Below are positions 26,061 through 38,272 of a DNA stretch of 64,000 bases, one piece after another. How positions within the stretch are numbered: position 1 is the stretch's first letter; each line of letters begins with the position of its first letter. The notes below the pieces were generated by a model. That model ran no database searches, had not been told where the DNA came from, and saw only the letters and a list, made by a program, of their open reading frames with translations. Both the position numbers and the translations under genes were made by a program. Source of the stretch: Anaerolineales bacterium (GTDB lineage: Bacteria > Chloroflexota > Anaerolineae > Anaerolineales > E44-bin32); assembly GCA_034430425.1 (NCBI GenBank), contig DAOUEK010000077.1:281-64280 (forward strand). Direction: 5' to 3'.

Positions 26061-26786
26061 ATGATGGAAAACGACTACGAGCGAAGCCCCGGGTTTAGTT
26101 TTTCGGGCTGCAAACGCATCGTTTTCAATATCCTCACCGTCATCGTGTTGTTAACGACGGTGTTTGTGGGCATCGTACTGGTTGTCGTTTTTGTTAATCC
26201 CCAGATCTCGATCAATCCTTTCCCACCACCCACAATGCTGCCTACGCTGGGATCTCCGACGCCCACGCAAACACCGGCAATCACCTTGCCTCCAGTCTGG
26301 ACGCCGACACAAACAGAAGAGGCGGGTACAGAACCAGAAGCCACGCCCTCCCCCACCAAGGAACCACCAACAGCAACTGTCACGGAAACACCGGAGGAGG
26401 TAGCGGAATACCCCTTCGTCTTGCAAGTCGGCAGCCCGGCGCTGATTGAAAACTTCATCAACGGATCAGGATGCGAATTCATGGGTGTTTTCGGCCAGGT
26501 TTTCAACCAGGACAATCAACCCATTCTTGAATTGACGGTGCACCTTGGGGGGGAACTCGAGGGGATAGGGGAAATCGATCTATACTCACTTACAGGAAGC
26601 GAGCTGGACGCCGGCCCGGGCGGGTACCTCTTTAATGTGGCTACAGCACCGATCGCCAGCGCCGGTACGTTGTGGATCCAATTGGAAGATGGCAGTGGAA
26701 ATCCGATTTCCGAACAAGTCTACCTGGATACGAGTGATTCCTGCAGTGAGAATCTAATCCTGGTCAATTGGCGACAGGTGCGATAA
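26061..26786 (+). CDS. hypothetical single-pass membrane protein with Pro/Thr-rich linker
   Basis: TM helix IVFNILTVIVLLTTVFVGIVLVVVFV, then a PT-rich linker and a ~130-aa beta-rich domain. No recognisable family. Confidence 0.6.
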   Translation: MMENDYERSPGFSFSGCKRIVFNILTVIVLLTTVFVGIVLVVVFVNPQISINPFPPPTMLPTLGSPTPTQTPAITLPPVWTPTQTEEAGTEPEATPSPTKEPPTATVTETPEEVAEYPFVLQVGSPALIENFINGSGCEFMGVFGQVFNQDNQPILELTVHLGGELEGIGEIDLYSLTGSELDAGPGGYLFNVATAPIASAGTLWIQLEDGSGNPISEQVYLDTSDSCSENLILVNWRQVR

Positions 26787-27128: not shown

Positions 27129-28325
27129 CTATCCGTTAATATTCTTCTGCAACGCTTCACAAACCCGATCGACCTCTCCCTCGGTCATGATCGTCGAGAA
27201 CGGCAGCGCCAAACTTCGCTTTCCCAGATCTTCCGTCACCGGGAAGTCGCCGGGACGATACTCGAAGCGCTCGATGAAGTAGGGCTGTGTGTGAATGGGC
27301 ACGAAGTAAGGTCGGGAAGGAATCCCCGCCGCAGTCAATCGTTCAACCAGGGCACTTCGATCGACATCCCCGGCCAAACGAACCACGTAAACGAACCAGC
27401 TGACCCGGGTAGTGTTCGGATCTATACGCGGTGCATCTACGCCTGAAATGTCCGCCAGGCGTTCTCCATACCAGTCAGCCACACGCCTGCGCTTATCCAG
27501 CAACTCATCCAGCCGACCCATTTGTACGCGCCCCAAAGCCGCACTCATTTCATCCAAACGATAGTTGTAGCCCAGATGCGTGTGGTCGAGCCAGGTATCT
27601 CCCGGTGCACGACCCTGGTTGCGTAACGCACGGAAGGAATCCGCCCATGATTCGTCTTGCGTAACGATGATTCCCCCTTCACCGGTGGTGATTTGTTTGT
27701 TGGGATAGAAGGCAAACACGCCAGCATCCGCCAACATTCCGGCCGGGCGTCCCTTGTAGCTGGCGCCGAGCGCCTCACACGAATCCTCGATTACGACCAG
27801 GTCATTCTCATTCGCAATCGCATTCAGCGCGTCAAAATCGGCCGGCTGTCCAAACACGTCTACAGGCAGGATGGCCTTCAAGCGACCACTTTCTTGCGCG
27901 CCCTTTCTCGGAAGCCGGCGAGCCGCCGCCTGGCCACCGCGCAGCAGATCCTGCACGGCCTGTCCCACTTGCTCGGGATCGATGTTGCCCGTACTTGAGT
28001 CGATATCGACGAACACCGGCGTTGCTCGCTCGTAGAGAATCACATTGGCCGAGGAAATGAATGAAAAAGGCGTGGTGATGACCCAATCGCCATCCGTAAT
28101 ACCCGCAGCTCGAACGCAAAGATGCAGCCCCGCCGTTCCAGAGCTTACGGCAACGGCATATTCGGCGCCGATATAGTCTGCCACAATGTTTTCAAACGCC
28201 TCGATCTGCGGCCCCATACTCAATCTCGGCGTACGAAGCACCTCCAGCACCGCATCCCGCTCCGCATCCGTTAGGTCCGGCGAAGACATATTGATGGAAA
28301 CCGGTTGTTCGCCATCCTTGGTCAA
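27129..28325 (-). CDS. DegT/DnrJ/EryC1/StrS-family PLP aminotransferase (NDP-keto-sugar aminotransferase)
   Basis: Family pattern EVLRTPRLSMGPQIEAFE...AVAVSSGTAGLHL...NYRLDEMSAALG. Confidence 0.9.
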   Translation of the reverse strand: MTKDGEQPVSINMSSPDLTDAERDAVLEVLRTPRLSMGPQIEAFENIVADYIGAEYAVAVSSGTAGLHLCVRAAGITDGDWVITTPFSFISSANVILYERATPVFVDIDSSTGNIDPEQVGQAVQDLLRGGQAAARRLPRKGAQESGRLKAILPVDVFGQPADFDALNAIANENDLVVIEDSCEALGASYKGRPAGMLADAGVFAFYPNKQITTGEGGIIVTQDESWADSFRALRNQGRAPGDTWLDHTHLGYNYRLDEMSAALGRVQMGRLDELLDKRRRVADWYGERLADISGVDAPRIDPNTTRVSWFVYVVRLAGDVDRSALVERLTAAGIPSRPYFVPIHTQPYFIERFEYRPGDFPVTEDLGKRSLALPFSTIMTEGEVDRVCEALQKNING

Positions 28326-28363: not shown

Positions 28364-29467
28364 TCAATCACGCTTGCTCGATTCCGGCCAGACTGCTCCA
28401 GCCCGCACGATACCGTTTGCGGGCACATCGGCTTTAACCACCGCACTATTCCCTACCCTCGCCCCGGCACCGATCGAAACGCCTAAATTAATCGTGGCTC
28501 CCATACCGATCAGTGTGCCCGCACCTATTTCGACACTGCCCGCCAGCAGGGCTCCCGGTGCGACATTTGCATACTCGGCAATGCGGCAATCGTGTGAAAC
28601 CACCGCGGCTGTGTTCACGATCGCGCCAAACCCAATCGCCACGTCGCTTCCAACGTAGGCATGCGGAAATACTTGAACGCCCTCCGCCAACTCTGCGCTT
28701 TCCTCGATATAAGCTGTCGGGTGAACCAGTGTTGGAAAGGCATAACCAGCCTCGCGCAGCATCTCGAAAACGCGCACCCGACTCTGCATGTCACCGATAC
28801 CCCCTACAGCGTTGACTGCGTTTTCCACACCACGCTGCTTAAGTGTTTCCAGGATTTCGGTACCGCCCAAAATCGAAACGTCCATCACCTGACTTCCCGA
28901 GGCGAGGCCGTCATCCAACACCCCGATGACCGTATACGTGCCAAGCGTACGGATCAAGTCGATCAACGCTTTCCCGTGTCCGCCGCCGCCGTAGACGATG
29001 AGCGCCTGCGAATCGAATTCCCCTTCCGGGATTTCAAGCAGTCTGGCGCGCTGCGCATGTTTGCGCACCACATCCTCTGTGATCCAGATATCTCGCGGCA
29101 GCAACTTCAAATCCACACCCAACTCTTCGGCCAGGGCGAGGGCCGGCTCGGTGATACGCTTATCGAGATCGACCTGTTTAATATTCGAGGCCGCTTTCGT
29201 CTTCTTGGGCGGTTTCCATTTCCGATCGTCAGCCAACCAGCAAAACACCTCTCCCGCCACAAGGCGATCGCCCACGTCCGCCTGGATGCCAGCAACATAG
29301 CCGCTCTGTTCGGCCACTACATCGGCCGTTGATTTCGTGGTCTCCAAGGTGCAGATCAGATCACCCGCCGAGATCGAGGCGCCTTCCGAAACATGGACCG
29401 CCACGAGCTGCGCTTCACGTTCGTTGGGATTCAACAACGGCACGCGCACCTCAACTGCAGTAGACAT
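28364..29467 (-). CDS. chimeric lipoyl-domain / peripheral-subunit-binding-domain / PglD-NeuD-type sugar N-acyltransferase
   Basis: Residues 4-79 form a lipoyl/biotinyl fold with LETTKST (K45). Residues 80-100 form a K/P/A linker. Residues 103-137 are E3_binding-like (ITEPALALAEELGVDLKLLP...ITEDVV). Residues 155-360 are NeuD/PglD-like (LIVYGGGGHGKALIDLI, catalytic-His context VVSHDCRI, hexapeptide repeats). Confidence 0.8.
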   Translation of the reverse strand: MSTAVEVRVPLLNPNEREAQLVAVHVSEGASISAGDLICTLETTKSTADVVAEQSGYVAGIQADVGDRLVAGEVFCWLADDRKWKPPKKTKAASNIKQVDLDKRITEPALALAEELGVDLKLLPRDIWITEDVVRKHAQRARLLEIPEGEFDSQALIVYGGGGHGKALIDLIRTLGTYTVIGVLDDGLASGSQVMDVSILGGTEILETLKQRGVENAVNAVGGIGDMQSRVRVFEMLREAGYAFPTLVHPTAYIEESAELAEGVQVFPHAYVGSDVAIGFGAIVNTAAVVSHDCRIAEYANVAPGALLAGSVEIGAGTLIGMGATINLGVSIGAGARVGNSAVVKADVPANGIVRAGAVWPESSKRD

Positions 29468-29530: not shown

Positions 29531-30529
29531 TCAAGCGACCAACGCCAGCGCCATATTCATGATCTTCTCGACCGAGGGCAGCACCGCCGCCTCAAGCCGG
29601 ATTGCGGCGGGGATGGGCATCTCGAGTGCACCAATGCGGCCGACCTTTATATTGGACGGTATGTCCTCATGCAGTCGCGCCGACACTTCCGCTCCCCATC
29701 CCATCGTTTGCGAGCCTTCTTCAATTACAAGCACTCGTTTGGTCTGAGATGCGCTCTCATATACCGACTCCAGCTTGAATGGGCTGATCTGTGTCGGTAC
29801 GATCAACTCACAAAATATTTCCTTCTCGTACGCCAAATTACGCATGGCTTCACGTGCAAGCTCCGCCATGTAGCCATAGGCCACCAACGTCAGGTTCGGT
29901 TTCGGTGACCTGTGTAATTGTAGTTGATAATCGGGATAGCCGTTGCCGCGCCGTACGATGCCGAAATCTCCCCTTCCACCCAATGGCAGAATCGCGCTCG
30001 GGTAGAGCAGTTTGTGTTCCACAAACAACACCGGGTCGTCGTCCTCCAGCACCGCGTTGCAGAGCAAGGCACCGGGATCATCCAGAGATGAAACAGCGAC
30101 CACACGCAAGCCGGCCGCCCCCAAGAAGTGCTTTTCCAAACTCTGGCTGTGTGTCGGACCATAACCACGACCGCCACCCATGGGAGTACGCACCACGAGA
30201 GGAAGGCGAGTCGCCTCGCCGCTCATCCAACGGATTTTTGCTGCGTGATTGATCAATTGATCGGCCGCCAGGATAATGAAATCCCCGAACATGATTTCAA
30301 CCACAGGGCGCAATCCCCGCAGTGCCATTCCGATCCCCACACCCACAATACCCGCTTCCGAGACCGGCGTCGTAATCACGCGATCTGAGAACTGCGTCGA
30401 CAACCCATTCGCCACCTTGAAGGCACCGCCGTAGGGATCGAGTATATCCTCACCTAAAAAGTAGACCTCAGGCGACTCCTGTAAGCAAGCGACGAGTGCC
30501 TCGTTCAAGGATTCCCGCACAGTCGTCAT
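29531..30529 (-). CDS. 2-oxoacid dehydrogenase E1 component beta subunit (transketolase-like)
   Basis: Typical E1-beta layout: N-terminal pyrimidine-binding domain (FLGEDILDPYGGAFKV, PVSEAGIVGVGIGMAL) and a C-terminal transketolase domain. Confidence 0.9.
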   Translation of the reverse strand: MTTVRESLNEALVACLQESPEVYFLGEDILDPYGGAFKVANGLSTQFSDRVITTPVSEAGIVGVGIGMALRGLRPVVEIMFGDFIILAADQLINHAAKIRWMSGEATRLPLVVRTPMGGGRGYGPTHSQSLEKHFLGAAGLRVVAVSSLDDPGALLCNAVLEDDDPVLFVEHKLLYPSAILPLGGRGDFGIVRRGNGYPDYQLQLHRSPKPNLTLVAYGYMAELAREAMRNLAYEKEIFCELIVPTQISPFKLESVYESASQTKRVLVIEEGSQTMGWGAEVSARLHEDIPSNIKVGRIGALEMPIPAAIRLEAAVLPSVEKIMNMALALVA

Positions 30530-31452
30530 GAGGCACCACCCAATGGGAAGGTCAGGGATTGCGGATCGGCTTGTGGATCGCTCTGCGCGTTTGCGTAGGC
30601 CTCGGCGATTTCCTCCGCTACTGCTTTTTCGATATGCTGCCGCTCCTCGTTTTCAATCCCCGCAGCAAGTAATTGCAATGGATCCTGCGCACGGTACTGC
30701 TCGATTTCCTTTGGATCGCGCCCGTCATCCCCTTTCGAATGCGGCGCGAAGCGGTAGGTGTGCAGGATCAATGCGCGCGGTCCTTCGCCAGTGCGGATCG
30801 AGGTCGTATTCTCACGAGCGCACTGCATGATATTAAACACATCACGTGCTTCCAGCTCCATCGCCGAAATTCCAAATGCCTCAAAACGTGCACACATATC
30901 TCCTGCCAAATTTAATTCCACAGGCGTACTTTGTGCATAACGGTTGTTTTCGACGATGAAAAATAATGGCAGATTCCAGAGGGAAGCCATATTTAGAGAT
31001 TCATAAACCACACCTTCACCAAGCGTGCCGTCACCGATGAAGGTGAATACCACAGAATTTCGCCGCTTCGCGGTCTCAGCAAAAGCCATACCAACCGCGA
31101 TCGGCACCGTACCGCCGAGGATGCCGTTGGCAAAAAAGTCCTGCCATTTGATATGCTGACTCCCCCCCCTGCCGCCGCATATCCCCGTCTCGCGACCGAG
31201 CAGTTCTGCGGCCAATGCGTGCATCGAACCACCGTAGGCCAGAAAATGCCCATGGCAGCGATGGTTGCTGACAACGAGGTCCCCTTCTTGCATGGCCGTC
31301 AGGACACCCACGGCATTGGCCTCTTGACCGATGTAAGTGTGTGTCGTTCCGTAAATCTGACCACTTGGAAATAAATCAAGCAGCCTTTCTTCGAAAAGGC
31401 GGATGCGCAGCATCTTTCGATACAGGTCAACGTGGTTTGGGGAGGGTTCCAT
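30526..31452 (-). CDS. TPP-dependent 2-oxoacid dehydrogenase E1 component alpha subunit
   Basis: NHRCHGHFLA, GRGGSQH, TPP motif GDGTLGEG...ENNRYAQST, YRFAPHSKGDD. ATGA overlap with E1 beta. Confidence 0.9.
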   Translation of the reverse strand: MEPSPNHVDLYRKMLRIRLFEERLLDLFPSGQIYGTTHTYIGQEANAVGVLTAMQEGDLVVSNHRCHGHFLAYGGSMHALAAELLGRETGICGGRGGSQHIKWQDFFANGILGGTVPIAVGMAFAETAKRRNSVVFTFIGDGTLGEGVVYESLNMASLWNLPLFFIVENNRYAQSTPVELNLAGDMCARFEAFGISAMELEARDVFNIMQCARENTTSIRTGEGPRALILHTYRFAPHSKGDDGRDPKEIEQYRAQDPLQLLAAGIENEERQHIEKAVAEEIAEAYANAQSDPQADPQSLTFPLGGAS

Positions 31453-31532: not shown

Positions 31533-31568
31533 AAAAAACAATAAGCCGCCCAAGTAAATGGACGGCTT
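31533..31568 (-). terminator. rho-independent terminator after the small basic protein gene
   Basis: On the minus strand, AAGCCG-loop-CGGCTT is followed by ATTGTTTTTT. Confidence 0.75.
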
Positions 31569-31601: not shown

Positions 31602-31784
31602 TTACATATTCATCTTTCCGAAATCTGCTTTAACAATACGCCAGGCTTCGTGGCTTCCCCCGGGAGCACGAGCAACTGCGAAATAGCGTGTCTTGCCTTT
31701 GGACTCCTTGGCCTCGATCCTCCAGTCTGCGCTTGTGAACTTCGACTTCGCCTTGATATCATAAAACTCAAGTGGTTCCTTCAC
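31602..31784 (-). CDS. small (60 aa) basic hypothetical protein
   Basis: GTG start at 31784 lies 6 nt after a strong SD, GAGGAGG. Sequence VKEPLEFYDIKAKSKFTSADWRIEAKESKGKTRYFAVARAPGGSHEAWRIVKADFGKMNM is Lys/Arg-rich and looks beta-rich. It has its own terminator. Confidence 0.55.
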   Translation of the reverse strand: MKEPLEFYDIKAKSKFTSADWRIEAKESKGKTRYFAVARAPGGSHEAWRIVKADFGKMNM

Positions 31785-31963: not shown

Positions 31964-32599
31964 TCATCCGCCATCCTGCTTTCCCATGAATTCCTCTGCG
32001 GTTGCATGCCCAGGTTGGCTGATCCCTTCACGTTTGATCACTTTCCAGAAATTAAGCAGCAGGATCTTCATGTCAAGCCGCAGCGACCAATGATCCACGT
32101 ACCAGACATCACGTTCAAATTTCTCCGCCCAGGAAATCACGTTACGTCCACCAATCTGTGCCCAACCGGTGATCCCCGGAAGCACATCATGCCTGCGCGC
32201 TTGTTCCGGAGAATAACGCTCGAGGTACTTCATTAATAACGGCCGAGGACCAACGAGACTCATCTCGCCGCGCAAAACGTTGAATAGCCCGGGCAATTCA
32301 TCGATGCTGGATGAACGCAGGAAACGTCCCAATTTGGTGAGTCTGTCTTCATCGGGCAGAAGCGTGCCATTGGCGTCACGCCTATCGATCATCGTCCTGA
32401 ACTTATAGATTTCGAATGGTGCTGCCCGATAGCCCGGTCGTAATTGTCGAAAGAGCACCGGTTTCCCCAATTGCATCCGGATCAACAGCGCCGAAAGCGC
32501 CATAAACGGGCTGATCAGAACCAGGCCAGGCACAGCCAATACCAAGTCGAATATCCGCTTCCGCAATGGGATTCCAGGAATGAACAACGGCATCTTCAT
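31964..32599 (-). CDS. small monotopic polyprenyl-phosphate sugar-phosphate transferase (PglC/WbaP-C-terminal type)
   Basis: Bacterial sugar transferase signature KRIFDLVLA...LFRQLRPG...FEIYKFRTM...IDELPGLFNVLRGEMSLVGPRP. Confidence 0.9.
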   Translation of the reverse strand: MKMPLFIPGIPLRKRIFDLVLAVPGLVLISPFMALSALLIRMQLGKPVLFRQLRPGYRAAPFEIYKFRTMIDRRDANGTLLPDEDRLTKLGRFLRSSSIDELPGLFNVLRGEMSLVGPRPLLMKYLERYSPEQARRHDVLPGITGWAQIGGRNVISWAEKFERDVWYVDHWSLRLDMKILLLNFWKVIKREGISQPGHATAEEFMGKQDGG

Positions 32600-32665
32600 A
32601 CAGGAATTAACCCCGCAGCCAAACACAAAGAATCGAGCACACACCCGTACGGCACTGGCTGGTAT

Positions 32666-33895
32666 TTATTTATCAATTTGATCTGCAACCTGGATAAGTT
32701 CTTCCATTACCGCTTGCATCCTGCCGGCCAGAATATTTCGATCGAATCGTTCCACGGCACATTTACGTCCAGCGCTGCCCATGCGCGCACACAGATCCGG
32801 GTCGGTTTGAAGGATTTTCACAGCCCCTGCCAGTGCTTGTGGGTATCCCGGTCGCACGAAAATCCCGGCACCTGCTTCTTCCACCACAGACCTTATCACG
32901 CCATCAATGACCAGCAAGATCGGACGTCCGGCGGCCAAATAATCGAAGACCTTGTTGGGATAGGTGGTTTTATATGCCGCGATGGGTTTTAGGATGGCGA
33001 TGCATGCATCCGCAGCAGCCAGCGCCATGGCGATATTGTTCTTCGACGTCGGTGGCAGAAAATAGACATTGGAAAGCTTCAACGCCGCCGTTTTCCTCAT
33101 CAGTGCACTTTTTTCTTTTCCATCACCGATCAAAACGAAGGCCAGTTTCTTTTGATCCCGCAAACGGTCAGCCGCCTCGATGACCACACCGAGATCGTTG
33201 GACATGCCATGCGCTCCCGCATACATCACTACGAATACTCCCTCGAGATCATGTGCCTGACGGAACGCTGCGCCCTTATCCGTCGGATCAAACATGGACA
33301 CGTCCACACCGTTAGGAACCAGGGCAACACGGCGTGCCCCTCGCTCGCGGACATGGCCTTCATAACCCGGCGAGTTGATCACCACTAGATCTGCGGCGAA
33401 ATACAAAAACCGCTCAAACCATCGGGCCAGCTGAATCAACACCCGATTCCGCAGTACACCTACTGCAACCGCAAAATAAGGCCATAAATCACGCACTTCA
33501 AATAGAAACGGCTTTCTCTTCAAACGCGCCAAAGCCCACGCCGCCAAACCCTGAAAGATGGGTGGTGAAGTCCCCCAAACCAGATCCACCTCACGAACAC
33601 GCAATCCGATGAAAAACGATGAGATCGTGAAGCTGAGGAAACTCAGGATGCGGTGAAAAAAGGAGCGGTGCCAGGCCGCATAGGTATAGCAGCGATAAAT
33701 CACGACACCGTGATCATCTGTTTCCGTTTTTACCCAGCCGCTCGCGGTACGTTCTCCGGTGAGGTAATTGACCTGCCCGGTAATCACGGTAACGCGGTGT
33801 CCCTGGGATGCCAGATAGCGCGCCATTTCATGGTGGCGCGTCCCGCCTGGCTCACCCAGCGCGGCGAATACTTGATGGATCAGCAGAATATGCAT
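32666..33895 (-). CDS. glycosyltransferase family 4 (WbuB-like)
   Basis: MHILLIHQVFAALGEPGGTRHHEMARYL N-terminus is typical of WbuB-type GT4. Start moved to the ATG at 33895. Overlaps the upstream gene by 44 nt. Confidence 0.85.
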   Translation of the reverse strand: MHILLIHQVFAALGEPGGTRHHEMARYLASQGHRVTVITGQVNYLTGERTASGWVKTETDDHGVVIYRCYTYAAWHRSFFHRILSFLSFTISSFFIGLRVREVDLVWGTSPPIFQGLAAWALARLKRKPFLFEVRDLWPYFAVAVGVLRNRVLIQLARWFERFLYFAADLVVINSPGYEGHVRERGARRVALVPNGVDVSMFDPTDKGAAFRQAHDLEGVFVVMYAGAHGMSNDLGVVIEAADRLRDQKKLAFVLIGDGKEKSALMRKTAALKLSNVYFLPPTSKNNIAMALAAADACIAILKPIAAYKTTYPNKVFDYLAAGRPILLVIDGVIRSVVEEAGAGIFVRPGYPQALAGAVKILQTDPDLCARMGSAGRKCAVERFDRNILAGRMQAVMEELIQVADQIDK

Positions 33896-36092
33896 TGTTA
33901 ATTTCCAGGTATTGTCTCTGCCACCGAAGAGAAGAAACGGGTGTGAGTGCTTGCCCGGGATCGCTCCACTCGATCTCCACTTCATCTTTGTTAACACCGG
34001 CCAATTGCCACCAGGTGCATCGGCGGACCGGTAAAGTTGCCTCACTTCGAGTTACATAGCGAAGGCAGGGCGCTTTAACTCCATATTTATTCGAGCGCCA
34101 ACCGACGATCTCAGGATCAGGAACGACTTCATCGCCGTACTCCAATACGCCGGCTCGATAAAGTCCGACTCGCCCAACACTCCCTTCCAGTCTCATCTCG
34201 ATATTGGACGCACCCATTTCAAGCGAGAGACCGGTATCCATTGGTTTCCACGCATAATCGGGCATCGTCCAGCCAATGGATGTGTTGTGTACACCCTCTC
34301 CAAGCAGATCATCCACGACCAGCCACAAATCCTCTCCCAGCCTGGCTACCGAACGACGATGGATCACACCAAGCGACCGGTAGCCATAATGCTCTCCCGT
34401 GAGCATCTCGATTTCACCATTTTGCGTACACCAGCGCCCCAGGAGTCTACCCTGCGCCCAGTCGACCCATAAAAATCTGCCCGCTCGATGCATGGGATCC
34501 TGGTCGTCGATCAGGACGGTGTTGTGAAACGCAGCTCCGACCCAGGGATTATCCCAGGGTGGTTTCCCATTATACAGGTACGTACCCGGATCACAGGCAA
34601 TGTTATTCCCTTGCCACCACAGATCGAAATGCAGTTGATCCGAGTGCCCCGGCCGGGATCGAAAATGGGCGCAGCGCAGTATCCCCCAGGTCTTTTCCCC
34701 GCAAAGGAGATAAAATCCGCTGTCTGAAAAGTGATCGCGGGATTCAACATCCTGCTTATAACTCTCAGCTTCCTTCTTCTGACGAGTCGCTCTTTGTTCT
34801 CGAGTAGTGTCCCCTGATACTCCGGGACTCACACCAAACCAGAGCAGTTCTTCATCCCGGGGACCACTCGGGAAAGGCCTGGTTTCTCCGAAAACCAACG
34901 CGGCCGCCTGACCCGTCGGACGGTGGTCTTCGAACGCACAAGTGCTCAGTGGAAAGATCAGCGCGCCGTCATTCGGACCCATGTTGGGTACTTCTCCGCA
35001 TTCCCGATCGATCATTGCGGTGTACCAGCGGGTGCAGTGGCGCAGCGCCTGAAACGACGCAGGGGATAATGGTTCGCCATTGACCTGCGCCAACCGGGCA
35101 GACCACAGCGCCGTTTGAAGTGCCAGGCGATGGTAATTGGTCGAATGCTGCACGTAACCACCGTCGGTGAAGATTTGATGGCGCAGGGATTTTTCCAGCC
35201 AACGCCGGCCCACCCGGCGCCAAACTTTCGCTTTGCGGAATTCCGGGAACAACAAACCCACACTATAAAGCCCCACCGCCTCGACCAGCAAATGATTGTT
35301 CCCCTGTGATCGAGCGTAGAGCAGCGTCGGCGGAATCCGCGCCGCGTGTACGGCGATCAACTGTGCGATCTCACACAGCTTTTCTGGCGAGTCGGCAACT
35401 CGATGAAAAGTAATCTGCAAAGCAAAAATCATCGCCAGTATGCGAATCGCCACTTCTTGCGCCGAAATCCAATGCGGCCCGGTGTTGGGCGGGTTGCTCT
35501 TTCGCCAGGAATTAATCAAGTGCCAAATGGCATCGGCGTAACGCACATCGTCGGTTAAAACGTACGCCCTGGCCAGCGGGAACACCCATCCGAAACGTGC
35601 CGGTTCCCACAGCAGTTTAATATCTTGCGGATAATCCTTCTCGTTGCAGGCTGTCCAATGTGTACCCAGAGAAACGGAAGCGCTTGCCGGATTGCCTGGT
35701 GAGGATGCAAACTTCTCCCAATCCGGCGGAAACCCCAAATCGTAGTTATCCGTGCCGAACAATCGAAATCGACCTGCCAGAATCGCATCCGCCTGTGCAA
35801 TAACTGCTTCTTCCTGCTGCCCGATGATCTCCTTCAACACCCGAGCGAACTCAGGATCAGGGTCGAGGAAAAAAAGCTTTCCGCTCCGTTTGCGAATTTC
35901 CAGGTAGTCATCGGGATCACCCGAAGTACCCGGCTGAAGCCAGGAGGCAAGAGGGACATCCTGCCAGGCCTGTTGCGGCGTCCGCCAGCGAAACCATCCC
36001 AAACGCAAGAGTACTTGGTAGATCCCATAGAGGATCATGGACCTGGGGCCAAGTTCACCAACCGCACGCAGAATGGTTTTTATCGATGCCAT
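33852..36092 (-). CDS. heparinase II/III-like (polysaccharide-lyase fold) protein
   Basis: 746 aa. The central region with NHLLVEAVGLY...GGYVQHSTNYHRLAL and the C-terminal HSDQLHFDLWWQG match the heparinase II/III / alginate-lyase family pattern. Confidence 0.75.
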   Translation of the reverse strand: MASIKTILRAVGELGPRSMILYGIYQVLLRLGWFRWRTPQQAWQDVPLASWLQPGTSGDPDDYLEIRKRSGKLFFLDPDPEFARVLKEIIGQQEEAVIAQADAILAGRFRLFGTDNYDLGFPPDWEKFASSPGNPASASVSLGTHWTACNEKDYPQDIKLLWEPARFGWVFPLARAYVLTDDVRYADAIWHLINSWRKSNPPNTGPHWISAQEVAIRILAMIFALQITFHRVADSPEKLCEIAQLIAVHAARIPPTLLYARSQGNNHLLVEAVGLYSVGLLFPEFRKAKVWRRVGRRWLEKSLRHQIFTDGGYVQHSTNYHRLALQTALWSARLAQVNGEPLSPASFQALRHCTRWYTAMIDRECGEVPNMGPNDGALIFPLSTCAFEDHRPTGQAAALVFGETRPFPSGPRDEELLWFGVSPGVSGDTTREQRATRQKKEAESYKQDVESRDHFSDSGFYLLCGEKTWGILRCAHFRSRPGHSDQLHFDLWWQGNNIACDPGTYLYNGKPPWDNPWVGAAFHNTVLIDDQDPMHRAGRFLWVDWAQGRLLGRWCTQNGEIEMLTGEHYGYRSLGVIHRRSVARLGEDLWLVVDDLLGEGVHNTSIGWTMPDYAWKPMDTGLSLEMGASNIEMRLEGSVGRVGLYRAGVLEYGDEVVPDPEIVGWRSNKYGVKAPCLRYVTRSEATLPVRRCTWWQLAGVNKDEVEIEWSDPGQALTPVSSLRWQRQYLEINNAYSADPSSIRRAG

Positions 36093-36100
36093 TACGATCT

Positions 36101-38272
36101 TTAGAGAGAATCGATCTTCACAGGTTTGCGCGTACGAAGTGCCTCCACAGCGGCAATCGAACTAAGGCTGACACCGACCAGATGCTCGTACGGAATCGGC
36201 GGCGGACCACTTTCTTCAAGCGCCTTTGTAAACGCTTCCCATTCCTGACGATGGCCCTTATCCTGGCGCAGCCGGGCGCGGTGCACTTTTCGCTTTCCGT
36301 TTTGAATGCGCACTAGCCGCCGGAAATCATCGAGAACGGCCACGCGACCGCCGCCAATGATTTCGACCCGCTCTTTGGGAAAGGCGCGGTCGCCAGCAGC
36401 CAGGTAACTCAGTGTCCCAACTGATCTGTCCGTAAATTCGAGCGTGATAATCACGTTGTCTTCGCGATAACGGGATGCGTCCGGTAAACCCAGCGCAGAG
36501 ACCTGCACAGGTGCAGCGCCGTTGATAAACGTGAGAAAATCGATGAAATGACAGGCTTCCCCGATGATGCGGCCGCCGCCCTGCTGCTCATCATGCAGCC
36601 AATGATCCAGGGGTAGATACCCGGCGTTGACGCGATAGTGCATTGCCAGCGGCTCGTTAACCGCATCGAAGAAAGTCTTCAGACGAACGGCGAAGGGTGA
36701 AAAGCGCCGGTTGAACCCCACGGTCAACATGCGATCGCTTTGTCCCAGCACCTGCATGATCTCGTCCAGTTCGTCCCGCTGCAGGGCCAGCGGTTTCTCG
36801 CAGAAGACATGCTTGCCGGCTTTCAACGCCGCGATCACCTGGGCGGCGTGGAGATGATGCCGCGTGAGTACGGCAACGGTGTTGATGCCTTCGTCGTTGA
36901 GAATCTCGTTTACATCCGTAGTGGCGTAGCGGAAGCCGAAACGCTTTCCAACCTGCGCGCTCTTCAGTCCACTCGCGGTAACCAATCCAACCCGCTCGAC
37001 CCCCTTTACCTTCCGCAAGGCAGGAAAGAGAATCGCCGTGGCGAAATTCCCCGCACCGATCGCTCCCAGTCGAACGCCAGCGGCAGGGGATATCTTGCGA
37101 TGCTCCAGGCCGACCCGTCGATCTTCTTCGGCAAGCTGTTCTTTCTCCTGCGGGTACGTAAGCAGCACAGCCAAAAAGGATTCATTGGTCTTTCCTGTGA
37201 TCAAATCGTACGCTGCGCTGGCGTGTTCGATGTCGAAGCGATGGCTGATCAACGAAGCGACGTCAAAACCACCCCCAGCTAACGTCTCCAAAAAAGCACC
37301 CAGGTTGCGTCCTTCGGTCCAACGTACATACCCGGGTGGATAGTCGATCCCGGCTTCTTCGTACAACGGATCATAGCGTCCCGGTCCATAGGAGCGCGAG
37401 ACGATGAAATGCAGTTCCTTGTGGTAATACGAACGCCGGGGGATGTCCATGCCCACTGCACCGACAGCCACGACTCTCGCCCGATCGCGTGCGATCGCCC
37501 CTGAAAGTTCGACCGGATCGTTGGACAGCGTATCGGCACAGATCAAGACGACATCGCATCCCAGACCGTTGCTGAAGGCTGCAGCCGCCTGTTCGGCGTC
37601 CGCATTTGTGACCGCTGTGGCGCCCAGGTCCTTCGCCCGTTCGACTCGCTCGGGGTCGAGATCGACTCCAAAAACGGAACAGCCTGCGGCGCGGGCGATC
37701 CCTACGGAAAGCAATCCCAACAGCCCCAGTCCAATAACCGCCACACGCTCGCCGAGCTGCGGTTCGGCCAGTCGAAAACCGTGCAGGGCGATAGCGCCCA
37801 GCGTGGCAAAAGCCCCCGCCTCGAAATCTACTTCATCGGGTAAATGCGCGAGTAAGTTTTGAGGCACGACGGCATATTCGGCATGAACCGCATAGCCACC
37901 ACCGGCGCAAGCCACTCGATCCCCCGCGCGGAAACCGTGCAAACCATCTCCCACGGACACAACCGTCCCTGCGGAGGCGTATCCCAGGGGCATGGGCTCA
38001 TCGAGCCGGTTCCGCACCGCCTCGAAAGTCGTCAGCAGCCCTTCACGCCGGACTTTATCCAGGACCTGGCGTACTAAATCGGGCCGTGAGCGGGCCTTGC
38101 CCAGCAAGGATTTCCCGGCGAACTCGACCACGCTTCGTTCGGTCCCTGCAGAGACGAGCGAAGCAGCGGTACGCACCAGGGCCATCCCCGGTCCCGGAAC
38201 GGGCACGGGAACGTCGATCACGCTGGTCTCGCCGGAGCGAACGTCTTGAATGACTTGTTTCATCGAATTCAT
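36101..38272 (-). CDS. bi-domain oxidoreductase: MDR alcohol-dehydrogenase-like N-half plus Gfo/Idh/MocA C-half
   Basis: The N-half has a GroES-like fold plus Rossmann motif VAVIGLGLLG. The C-half has LGAIGAGNFA...EKPLAL (Gfo/Idh/MocA). The MDR zinc-ligand positions are not conserved (SLVSAGTERS). The start may be 38263. Confidence 0.8.
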   Translation of the reverse strand: MNSMKQVIQDVRSGETSVIDVPVPVPGPGMALVRTAASLVSAGTERSVVEFAGKSLLGKARSRPDLVRQVLDKVRREGLLTTFEAVRNRLDEPMPLGYASAGTVVSVGDGLHGFRAGDRVACAGGGYAVHAEYAVVPQNLLAHLPDEVDFEAGAFATLGAIALHGFRLAEPQLGERVAVIGLGLLGLLSVGIARAAGCSVFGVDLDPERVERAKDLGATAVTNADAEQAAAAFSNGLGCDVVLICADTLSNDPVELSGAIARDRARVVAVGAVGMDIPRRSYYHKELHFIVSRSYGPGRYDPLYEEAGIDYPPGYVRWTEGRNLGAFLETLAGGGFDVASLISHRFDIEHASAAYDLITGKTNESFLAVLLTYPQEKEQLAEEDRRVGLEHRKISPAAGVRLGAIGAGNFATAILFPALRKVKGVERVGLVTASGLKSAQVGKRFGFRYATTDVNEILNDEGINTVAVLTRHHLHAAQVIAALKAGKHVFCEKPLALQRDELDEIMQVLGQSDRMLTVGFNRRFSPFAVRLKTFFDAVNEPLAMHYRVNAGYLPLDHWLHDEQQGGGRIIGEACHFIDFLTFINGAAPVQVSALGLPDASRYREDNVIITLEFTDRSVGTLSYLAAGDRAFPKERVEIIGGGRVAVLDDFRRLVRIQNGKRKVHRARLRQDKGHRQEWEAFTKALEESGPPPIPYEHLVGVSLSSIAAVEALRTRKPVKIDSL

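Follow-up and report, generated by a model that had tools for sequence, protein, structure and literature searches.

What acyl donor is used by an amino-sugar N-acyltransferase that carries, at its own N-terminus, the swinging arm of a 2-oxoacid dehydrogenase complex? The question is raised by a gene found at positions 28,364–29,467, on the reverse strand, of a 64,000-nucleotide stretch of contig DAOUEK010000077.1 from an Anaerolineales bacterium (Chloroflexota), the whole of which is referred to here as the window. The 367-residue product joins a lipoyl domain, a linker, a shortened peripheral-subunit-binding domain (PSBD) and a PglD/PerB-type N-acyltransferase, as judged from the open reading frame (ORF), Pfam, NCBIfam, the predicted structure and Foldseek. 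In the computational analysis reported here, the protein is best explained as the subunit that both carries and transfers the acyl group in a 2-oxoacid:amino-sugar N-acyltransferase made up of three proteins. The arrangement would be that of a 2-oxoacid dehydrogenase complex in miniature, with a PglD/PerB-type trimeric beta-helix enzyme taking the place of the E2 core. According to this reading, to which a probability of roughly 70% is assigned, an E1 enzyme would load an acyl group derived from a 2-oxoacid onto a lipoyl group at Lys45, from where the beta-helix domain would transfer it to a nucleoside diphosphate (NDP)-4-amino sugar.

The fusion ORF is intact, running from an ATG at 29,467 to a stop codon at 28,364–28,366, with a Shine-Dalgarno sequence, GGAGAG, being found 5' of the start. 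Pfam recognized Biotin_lipoyl at residues 6–75 (E = 2.1e-12), PglD_N at residues 156–237 (E = 1.7e-11) and Hexapep repeats, while the NCBIfam model TIGR03570 (NeuD/PglB/VioB) matched residues 156–354 with a score of 180.7 bits, given a cut-off of 160.8. The N-terminus matched several NCBIfam models of E2 proteins, among them those of 2-oxoglutarate dehydrogenase (7e-9) and, across residues 5–117, acetoin dehydrogenase (NF011457; 6e-8). Neither Pfam nor NCBIfam detected a 2-oxoacid_dh (chloramphenicol acetyltransferase (CAT)-like) core in the protein, and no E2 model matched past approximately residue 117. When the C-terminal half was compared with PDB sequences, PerB (2e-27), the acetyltransferase domain of Neisseria PglB, VioB and PglD were matched.

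Structure prediction with AlphaFold2 gave a predicted local distance difference test score (pLDDT) of 73.8 when 25 homologues were supplied, and a pLDDT of 92.2 with a predicted TM-score (pTM) of 0.68 when 114 diverse homologues were used. The deeper model presents a beta-barrel (residues 4–79), a Rossmann-like subdomain (residues 155–239) and a beta-helix (residues ~245–361), with residues 93–99 as the sole disordered stretch. Foldseek superimposed the C-terminal half on PerB, PglB and VioB with TM-scores of 0.87–0.92 and root-mean-square deviations (rmsd) of 1.7–2.3 Å, the deeper model and PerB yielding a TM-score of 0.91–0.92 and an rmsd of 1.9 Å. Full-length E2 models were also matched by the first model, i.e., that based on 25 homologues.

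Projected onto the reverse strand, the lipoyl-type barrel-sandwich domain (residues 4–79) occupies positions 29,231–29,458 and is assigned from Pfam Biotin_lipoyl, the PDB sequence match, Foldseek and a pLDDT of 87–98. It is followed by a flexible linker rich in Lys, Pro and Ala (residues 80–102, DDRKWKPPKKTKAAS...; 29,162–29,230; pLDDT below 50 at residues 93–99), the length of which varies across the fusion family. The Rossmann-like nucleotide-sugar-binding PglD_N subdomain (residues 155–239; 28,751–29,005) contains the motif YGGGGH, D185 and R230, and the left-handed beta-helix acyltransferase domain (residues 245–361; 28,385–28,735), defined by TIGR03570, Hexapep and the PerB match, ends in a clade-specific tail, ...VRAGAVWP. 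An earlier reading of the same DNA, made from the sequence alone (the sequence-only reading), had proposed a lipoyl/biotinyl-attachment domain at residues 4–79, a Lys/Pro/Ala-rich linker and a NeuD/PglD beta-helix in place of the E2 acyltransferase core, and had given codon positions for Lys45 and H292. The domain at residues 4–79 is borne out by Pfam, the PDB match and the predicted barrel, the linker by its disorder in the model, and the replaced core by Pfam, TIGR03570 and Foldseek; both codon positions are correct.

Among PDB sequences, the closest match to the N-terminus was the lipoyl domain 1gjx (6e-8), with lipoyl domains of E2 and E3-binding proteins being matched far better than biotin carriers (1.5e-3). 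Likewise, the N-terminal barrel of the first model was superimposed by Foldseek on the lipoyl domains of the human pyruvate dehydrogenase complex (L2) with an rmsd of ~1.6 Å. In the predicted structure, Lys45 (codon at 29,333–29,335) sits in the turn at the tip of the hairpin formed by strands 37–42 and 47–51. Conservation was assessed across 117 diverse fusion proteins, 25–49% identical to the window protein, and it is to these that the family counts given below refer. Lys45 is present in all 117 and Glu42, three residues earlier, in 116, while the residue that precedes the Lys is Ser or Thr in 114 and Met in one. On the basis of its invariance and hairpin-tip position, Lys45, within the motif E-T-T-K-S, is the predicted lipoyl-lysine. 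A Glu at −3 and a Gly at +11 are common to lipoyl and biotinyl domains, such that this signature does not discriminate between the two. Although biotin carriers were also returned for the N-terminal barrel by Foldseek and NCBIfam, these comparisons make a biotinyl rather than a lipoyl domain unlikely.

Examination of the DNA directly 5' of the fusion gene revealed, on the same strand, genes for both subunits of a heterodimeric E1 enzyme, assigned by Pfam and NCBIfam. E1 beta (29,531–30,529; 332 residues; Transket_pyr and Transketolase_C) adjoins the fusion gene and is preceded by E1 alpha (30,526–31,452; 308 residues; E1_dh, 6e-60), a thiamine diphosphate (ThDP)-binding protein, with the stop codon of E1 alpha overlapping the start of E1 beta by 4 nt. 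Neighbours were counted in 80 related loci, 73 of which include more than 1.2 kb of upstream DNA. E1 beta lies directly 5' of the fusion gene and in the same orientation in 77/80, with a median gap of 62 nt; among those loci with sufficient upstream DNA, it adjoins the fusion gene in 72/73, the exception being locus L048. E1 alpha is found upstream in 67/80. When contigs of nine other family members, eight of them distant, were examined individually, E1 alpha and beta or a single-chain E1 were directly 5' in each case. This adjacency, which had not been part of the sequence-only reading, is the strongest evidence for the model.

The E1 partners appear to be catalytically competent, judging from the residues they retain. 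The GDG...ENN motif and the PHS-loop His of E1 alpha are kept in 52–54 of 54 partners, and the Glu of the SEAG motif (E58) and the His of the THSQ motif (H127) of E1 beta in 63–64 of 67; the conserved His residues are those which we take to act in reductive acylation of lipoamide. The closest solved relative of E1 alpha is human pyruvate dehydrogenase (PDH) E1 alpha (1e-44), other solved E1 alpha subunits being matched at ~1e-24 to 1e-27, whereas E1 beta is about equally close to branched-chain 2-oxoacid dehydrogenase (BCKDH) and PDH. As a default guess from the similarity of E1 alpha, the substrate would be pyruvate and the acyl group acetyl. In some lineages, the two E1 genes are themselves fused into a single-chain E1 alpha-beta of ~645–670 residues (L042, 2242–4206; L083, 1056–2993; L086, 1907–3847), while in L082 and L085, E1 beta is split in two. 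These fusions and splits indicate that the E1 genes have been repeatedly rearranged, yet still adjoin the lipoyl-PglD gene.

A PSBD, shortened relative to those of E2 proteins, was assigned to residues 103–141 (29,045–29,161), with predicted helices at residues 107–116 and 131–140, on the basis of a family profile, Pfam E3_binding and the helices. The matches were weak for the window sequence alone and for a narrow profile built from 19 close homologues, with E = 0.03–0.17 for Pfam E3_binding and, for the narrow profile, E = 0.011 for the PSBD of a Thermus E2 in the PDB. Upon iterative widening, the PSBD motif was detected in 115 of 118 family linkers, with the consensus RITKKALALAEEHGIDLSDLPGDGLVTEKDVRAYL. 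When a profile of 68 family linkers was compared with the PDB, E2 PSBDs were returned at the top (2eq9_C, 5.7e-6; 1w4i, 6.6e-6; 1w4j; 2eq8_C; and 6zzl), with those of BCKDH, 2-oxoglutarate dehydrogenase (OGDH) and PDH E2 proteins below; Pfam E3_binding matched 26 of the 68 members, at best with 3.9e-5. In the profile alignments, the family PSBD loop is three residues shorter than the canonical loop. The PSBD proposed in the sequence-only reading thus holds at the level of the family, as a shortened variant. The family profile also matched, with E = 1.7e-5, residues 39–72 of PDB entry 7qjm_A, deposited as 'alpha/beta-hydrolase (202)', a PSBD-like segment consistent with the existence of E2-like proteins having non-canonical cores.

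The transferase domain was compared with its relatives at the sugar site and where they hold coenzyme A (CoA). Using G8, G11, D32, R72, N128, H135 and G153 of VioB as references for the catalytic and sugar sites, the counterparts G160, G163, D185, R230, N285, H292 and G310 were all found in the window protein, each being present in 106–117 of the 117 family members. R230, a sugar-site residue aligned with VioB R72, is invariant (117/117), and G160, G163 and D185, aligned with VioB G8, G11 and D32, are each found in 106–111. H292 (codon at 28,592–28,594), which aligns with VioB H135 and PerB H141 and is conserved in 116/117, is the predicted catalytic general base. The closest relatives of the transferase domain are enzymes whose acceptor is the C4-amine of 4-amino-4,6-dideoxyhexoses.

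In VioB, the CoA phosphates are bound by K206, R170 and R189, E171 contacts the cysteamine nitrogen, the turn G182-M183-G184 contacts pantothenate and adenine, and G199 and P201 (VioB numbering) are conserved in type I enzymes (PMC9271549). The alignment of the window protein with VioB is gapless, the residue number of the former being that of VioB plus 157, and a common hidden Markov model (HMM) alignment including CoA-dependent controls served to compare fusion and control proteins. At the position of VioB R170, the fusion family has Tyr, Phe, Asn or Leu, and never a basic residue (Asn in the window protein), whereas VioB, PglB and six of seven aligned tandem domains have Arg, and PerB has Ile. 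At the position of VioB E171, the fusion proteins are hydrophobic (Leu in the window protein), as opposed to Glu, Gln, Asp or Pro in the controls, and VioB K206 has no counterpart in the window protein. The Gly of VioB G182 is kept in 32 of the 117 fusion proteins as compared with nearly all controls. At the neighbouring M183 position, all 117 fusion proteins have an Asn (N340; codon at 28,448–28,450), as compared with Ala, Met or Val in every CoA-dependent control, and the turn reads G-N-S in the window protein and x-N-G in the family. The C-terminal G-x-P-A-K/R tail, present in 98 of 120 PerB-clade proteins, is found in only 1 of 117 fusion proteins; the clade of the window protein ends with the VRAGAVWP tail given above, and most other members end some eight residues past a DVP motif. 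The acetyl-CoA pocket, which the sequence-only reading had left as either intact or remodelled, is by this comparison remodelled, with R170, E171, the G-x-G turn and the tail all replaced. Taken with Lys45, the pattern of conservation is suggestive of an arm that matters and of an altered donor site, with the sugar site and catalytic base, and not the CoA site, being retained.

Among stand-alone relatives, proteins P0146 (865 residues) and P0264 (638 residues) comprise three or four tandem PglD-like domains, each ending in G-x-P-A-R, an unusual architecture for this family. By contrast, P0145 (235 residues; L084, 139–846) is an armless transferase domain bearing the fusion-clade tail in the form ...VRAGTIWP. 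It is encoded on a 3-kb contig, next to a DegT gene, and is preceded by a stop codon and unrelated AT-rich DNA; decay or rearrangement may have given rise to this copy.

In the proposed mechanism, lipoate would be attached to Lys45, and the co-transcribed ThDP-dependent E1 alpha/beta, docked via the shortened PSBD, would decarboxylate a 2-oxoacid, most likely pyruvate, and reductively acylate the lipoyl arm. The S-acyl-dihydrolipoyl arm would enter the inter-subunit cleft which in PglD, PerB and VioB is the site of the pantetheine of acetyl-CoA. There, H292 would deprotonate the C4-amine of an NDP-4-amino-4,6-dideoxy-hexose supplied by the neighbouring DegT enzyme, and the amine would attack the thioester to yield an N-acyl sugar. 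The latter would be transferred to undecaprenyl phosphate by a PglC-like enzyme. Re-oxidation of the dihydrolipoyl arm would presumably fall to a housekeeping E3 whose gene lies elsewhere. The model would bring Lys45 within reach of H292 and N340 and seat the PSBD on E1 beta. Use of the arm as the protein's own acyl donor, as suggested in the sequence-only reading, is supported by the E1 pair, the invariant Lys45, the remodelled donor site and the family-wide PSBD.

Several points weigh against this assignment. The motif E-T-T-K-S is neither the canonical lipoyl (T-D-K-A) nor the canonical biotinyl (A-M-K-M) motif, and the PSBD of the window sequence alone falls below threshold (Pfam E3_binding E = 0.1–0.17). 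PerB, which is CoA-dependent, carries Ile where VioB has R170, with an Arg two positions before it. The donor-site contrast rests on a narrow set of stand-alone controls, namely, the Caulobacter-like PerB clade, VioB and PglB PDB fragments and two tandem-domain proteins, because the PerB-seeded search gave only that clade. Moreover, since CoA is bound largely via backbone amides, the loss of side-chain contacts is no proof of the loss of CoA. Neither E3, LplA, LipB or LipA nor a 4,6-dehydratase (PglF-type) is encoded within the 64-kb window, and none of these is a recurrent neighbour in the 80 loci. Finally, if the acyl group is plain acetyl, the advantage over acetyl-CoA is unclear; it is difficult to see why so elaborate a route would be used for acetyl alone, which makes a non-acetyl acyl group a live possibility.

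The most probable of the alternatives, though itself improbable, is that the protein is a conventional acetyl-CoA-dependent PglD/EpsM-type N-acetyltransferase, with the arm, PSBD and E1 serving tethering, regulation or metabolite sensing. The TIGR03570 score exceeds the cut-off, the fold is superimposable on those of CoA-bound PerB, PglB and VioB, the contacts made with CoA mostly involve the backbone, with side-chain contacts varying among known enzymes, and public annotations list the family as NeuD/EpsM acetyltransferases. Such an enzyme would, however, leave unexplained both an invariant Lys45 and an E1 that, across phyla, is obligately adjacent and keeps its catalytic residues intact, as well as the joint loss of the basic phosphate ligands, the G-x-G turn and the G-x-P-A-K/R tail and the gain of N340.

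Even less probable is an unconventional E2, in which a beta-helix trimer replaces the CAT-like core and the acyl group is passed to CoA, which would make the protein part of a novel pyruvate or acetoin dehydrogenase supplying the pathway with acyl-CoA. The order of lipoyl domain, linker, PSBD and trimeric acyltransferase core, together with a dedicated E1, is that of an E2 protein, and a different C-terminal fold is known from the acetoin-type AcoC (NF011457), an E2-like protein in which an alpha/beta-hydrolase-fold acyltransferase acts on CoA. The solved alpha/beta-hydrolase 7qjm_A has the PSBD-like segment described above. Yet, the window protein has retained the sugar-site residues G160, G163, D185 and R230 and the amine-activating His while losing the CoA ligands, and the amino-sugar pathways in which the module is embedded have no other N-acyltransferase. 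As for a biotinylated or unmodified barrel next to an E1 that performs a non-oxidative ThDP reaction on a keto-sugar, adding a two-carbon branch as E1-like pairs are reported to do in branched-sugar antibiotic pathways, the fold common to lipoyl and biotinyl domains, the biotin-carrier matches and the non-canonical residues flanking Lys45 speak for it, but it is very improbable in light of the Ser or Thr that nearly always precedes Lys45 (with Met in a single member), the far better lipoyl matches, a PSBD that has no role in biotin enzymes, the lack of a carboxylase partner nearby, and an aminotransferase and N-acyltransferase domain that imply N-acylation chemistry.

Is the fusion confined to this genome, or might it be an artefact of assembly, as would have undone the sequence-only reading? 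More than 120 full-length homologues, 53–92% identical, share the architecture, and relatives were found in 327 genomes in a scan that considered one genome per species, with the best 80 of the 327 being almost all annotated as Chloroflexota/Anaerolineae metagenome-assembled genomes (MAGs). An HMM search of 1.84 billion cluster representatives, from which the best 150 were taken, showed that 128 of these 150 best-scoring 50%-identity representatives carry an N-terminal lipoyl domain, as detected by a sub-domain HMM. Named members come from Chloroflexota, Bacteroidota (Polaribacter and Dokdonia), Armatimonadota, Omnitrophota and Gemmatimonadota, with Dokdonia pacifica (WP_089371281.1) being a cultured carrier. 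Throughout, the family is annotated solely as NeuD/PglB/VioB, EpsM or 'hypothetical'. A frameshift or assembly join is ruled out, since the reading frame is unbroken and hundreds of genomes, assembled independently, show this architecture as well. The survey for the same fusion elsewhere that the sequence-only reading had called for hence reveals a widespread fusion with recurrent E1 neighbours, i.e., a real, conserved and widespread gene trio. The same PglC-E1-fusion-DegT locus also appears in a MAG labelled as a Methanosarcinales archaeon (L011; JAIWHF010000009.1), with an identity similar to that of Anaerolineales MAGs, which probably reflects contamination during binning and not presence in an archaeon.

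The genes surrounding the trio point to the likely acceptor. Downstream of the fusion gene lies a DegT-family sugar aminotransferase (27,129–28,325, reverse strand; Pfam DegT, 5.5e-114), the predicted maker of the amino-sugar acceptor, the closest solved relative of which is perosamine synthetase (3bn1; 5e-70), with the PseC and LegC models scoring below cut-off. Upstream, a PglC-like monotopic phosphoglycosyltransferase (31,964–32,644, reverse strand; Bac_transf, 3.5e-62), closest among solved proteins to the di-N-acetylbacillosamine-1-phosphate transferase PglC (8g1n; 5e-65), would load the sugar onto a lipid carrier. In the 80 related loci, DegT is downstream of the fusion gene in 52 and the PglC-like gene upstream in 50. 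The region from 27 to 46 kb of the window is a glycan cluster that also includes genes encoding a uridine diphosphate (UDP)-sugar dehydrogenase, a 2-epimerase, four family 4 glycosyltransferases (GT4), a GFO/IDH/MocA-containing oxidoreductase and a heparinase II/III-like protein. Elsewhere, one distant family member lies beside a 4,6-dehydratase and DegT in a Wzt-type O-antigen cluster, and another adjoins DegT and a dehydratase.

Two further contexts were seen. In L082 (2661–13,509), a distant family member lies in a legionaminic/pseudaminic-type nonulosonic-acid cluster with genes for a dehydratase, DegT, a nucleotidyltransferase with a CBS domain, NeuB, a hydrolysing 2-epimerase, a cytidine monophosphate (CMP)-transferase and HisF/HisH-like proteins. 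Here, E1 and the fusion take the position expected for the LegH/PseH acetyltransferase. In two flavobacteria, L087 (7990–11,113) and L088 (8053–11,107; Dokdonia pacifica, GCA_900188275.1, FZNY01000002.1, ~612.7–615.8 kb), a single-chain E1 alpha-beta and the fusion are found not in glycan clusters but at the end of nonribosomal peptide synthetase (NRPS) clusters, with condensation, adenylation, peptidyl carrier protein and thioesterase domains, a phosphopantetheinyl transferase and a TonB receptor. This location suggests that the module can also act on acceptors other than sugars. A phylum-spanning system in which a lipoyl arm, rather than CoA or acyl-carrier protein (ACP), delivers the acyl group for N-acylation of biosynthetic intermediates, these being NDP-4-amino sugars of O-antigen, S-layer and nonulosonic-acid pathways and possibly flavobacterial NRPS amines, is slightly more likely than not. 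In a stronger form of this proposal, the system would serve to install acyl groups, such as glycolyl, propionyl or hydroxyacyl, of which no acyl-CoA pool is maintained in the cell.

Other features of the window accompany the module. Between the PglC-like gene and E1 alpha, a small ORF of ~60 residues (31,602–31,784, reverse strand; GTG start; ribosome-binding site GAGGAGG; VKEPLEFYDIKAKSKF...RYFAVARAPGG...) has no Pfam or NCBIfam match, although at least 21 related loci encode a conserved version of the protein; a terminator-like hairpin (31,543–31,568, reverse strand) lies 3' of it. Farther upstream and on the same strand, a 723-residue fusion of zinc-alcohol dehydrogenase-like and GFO/IDH/MocA domains, which weakly matches UDP-GlcNAc 3-dehydrogenase (36,101–38,272), adjoins the gene for a 746-residue heparinase II/III-like protein (33,852–36,092). 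This pair, which is kept upstream of the module in ~17 related loci, may make a second keto- or amino-sugar. A GT4 ORF (32,666–34,045, reverse strand), with a GTG at 34,045, shares 194 nt with the end of the heparinase-like ORF, and its true start is probably further downstream. On the forward strand, an ORF of 241 residues (26,061–26,786), again with no Pfam or NCBIfam match, converges on the end of the operon and is conserved near the module in ~24 related loci.

Comparison with known systems places the protein between two families. With PglD, PerB, VioB, Neisseria PglB, LegH and EpsM, all TIGR03570 enzymes, it shares the two-subdomain fold, the catalytic His, the oxyanion Gly310 and the nucleotide-sugar site, together with a neighbourhood logic of PglC-like enzyme, acyltransferase and aminotransferase, as in the epsL-M-N operon, where the genes follow this order. 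It differs in the added lipoyl domain, linker, PSBD and pairing with E1 alpha/beta, in replacement of the CoA-phosphate ligands, G-x-G turn and G-x-P-A-K/R tail, and in the invariant Asn that was gained. With E2 proteins, it has in common the lipoyl Lys at a hairpin tip, the linker, the PSBD, an acyltransferase core that assembles as a trimer, and a heterodimeric E1 encoded next to it. Unlike these, it is devoid of the CAT-like core, its PSBD loop is shorter by three residues, the fusion operon contains no E3 gene, and the acyl group is predicted to go to the amine of a sugar instead of to the thiol of CoA. AcoC-type acetoin dehydrogenase E2 proteins similarly share the lipoyl domain, the PSBD and an alpha/beta E1 partner, yet end in an alpha/beta-hydrolase fold rather than a beta-helix. 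LpxA and LpxD, which appear as weaker sequence and structure matches to the fusion protein, are beta-helix acyltransferases that use thioesters bound to a carrier protein (acyl-ACP). In those enzymes, the carrier is a separate, phosphopantetheine-bearing ACP, whereas here it is fused and predicted to bear lipoate charged by a decarboxylase.

Delivery by a lipoyl arm to an acceptor other than CoA has been described for QncN/QncL/QncM (also SclQ1-4), in which a ThDP-dependent E1-like enzyme loads a lipoyl arm that passes glycolyl to ACP, yielding glycolicacyl-ACP for non-ribosomal peptides (PMC6335953). The use of a non-CoA acceptor, predicted here, is shared with that system, as is the NRPS setting of some fusion members; Qnc, however, has a canonical E2-type domain and an ACP-thiol acceptor, rather than a PglD-type beta-helix and a predicted amine acceptor. 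A combination of E1 with a lipoyl-PglD protein was not found described in open-access full texts or bioRxiv, the sources covered by the search, in agreement with the sequence-only reading, in which no characterised example was known.

To our knowledge, the amino-sugar N-acyltransferases characterised so far draw on acyl-CoA or acyl-ACP, and N-formyltransferases on a folate donor, while lipoyl arms have hardly been described outside the 2-oxoacid dehydrogenases, the glycine cleavage system and a handful of systems of secondary metabolism. Against this background, the trio, with an E2 scaffold re-cored with a PglD-type transferase, most likely embodies a way of supplying acyl groups for glycan tailoring that has not been described before. 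If this is so, lipoyl arms would constitute a third class of acyl donor in such tailoring, the E2 scaffold would be able to accept an unrelated trimeric transferase as its core, and the annotation of a large family now labelled 'NeuD/PglB/VioB acetyltransferase' or 'EpsM' would be corrected. The trio of E1 alpha, E1 beta and lipoyl-PglD would, moreover, be a marker by which to predict unusual N-acyl substituents of sugars of the bacillosamine, perosamine and legionaminic/pseudaminic types and, in the stronger form of the proposal, would explain some of the N-acyl diversity of bacterial glycans that has so far lacked an explanation. For the bacteria that encode the trio, the findings suggest an undescribed route by which acyl groups pass from 2-oxoacids to surface sugars without coenzyme A, one that would offer a direct, ATP- and CoA-independent path from central 2-oxoacids to surface-glycan decoration.

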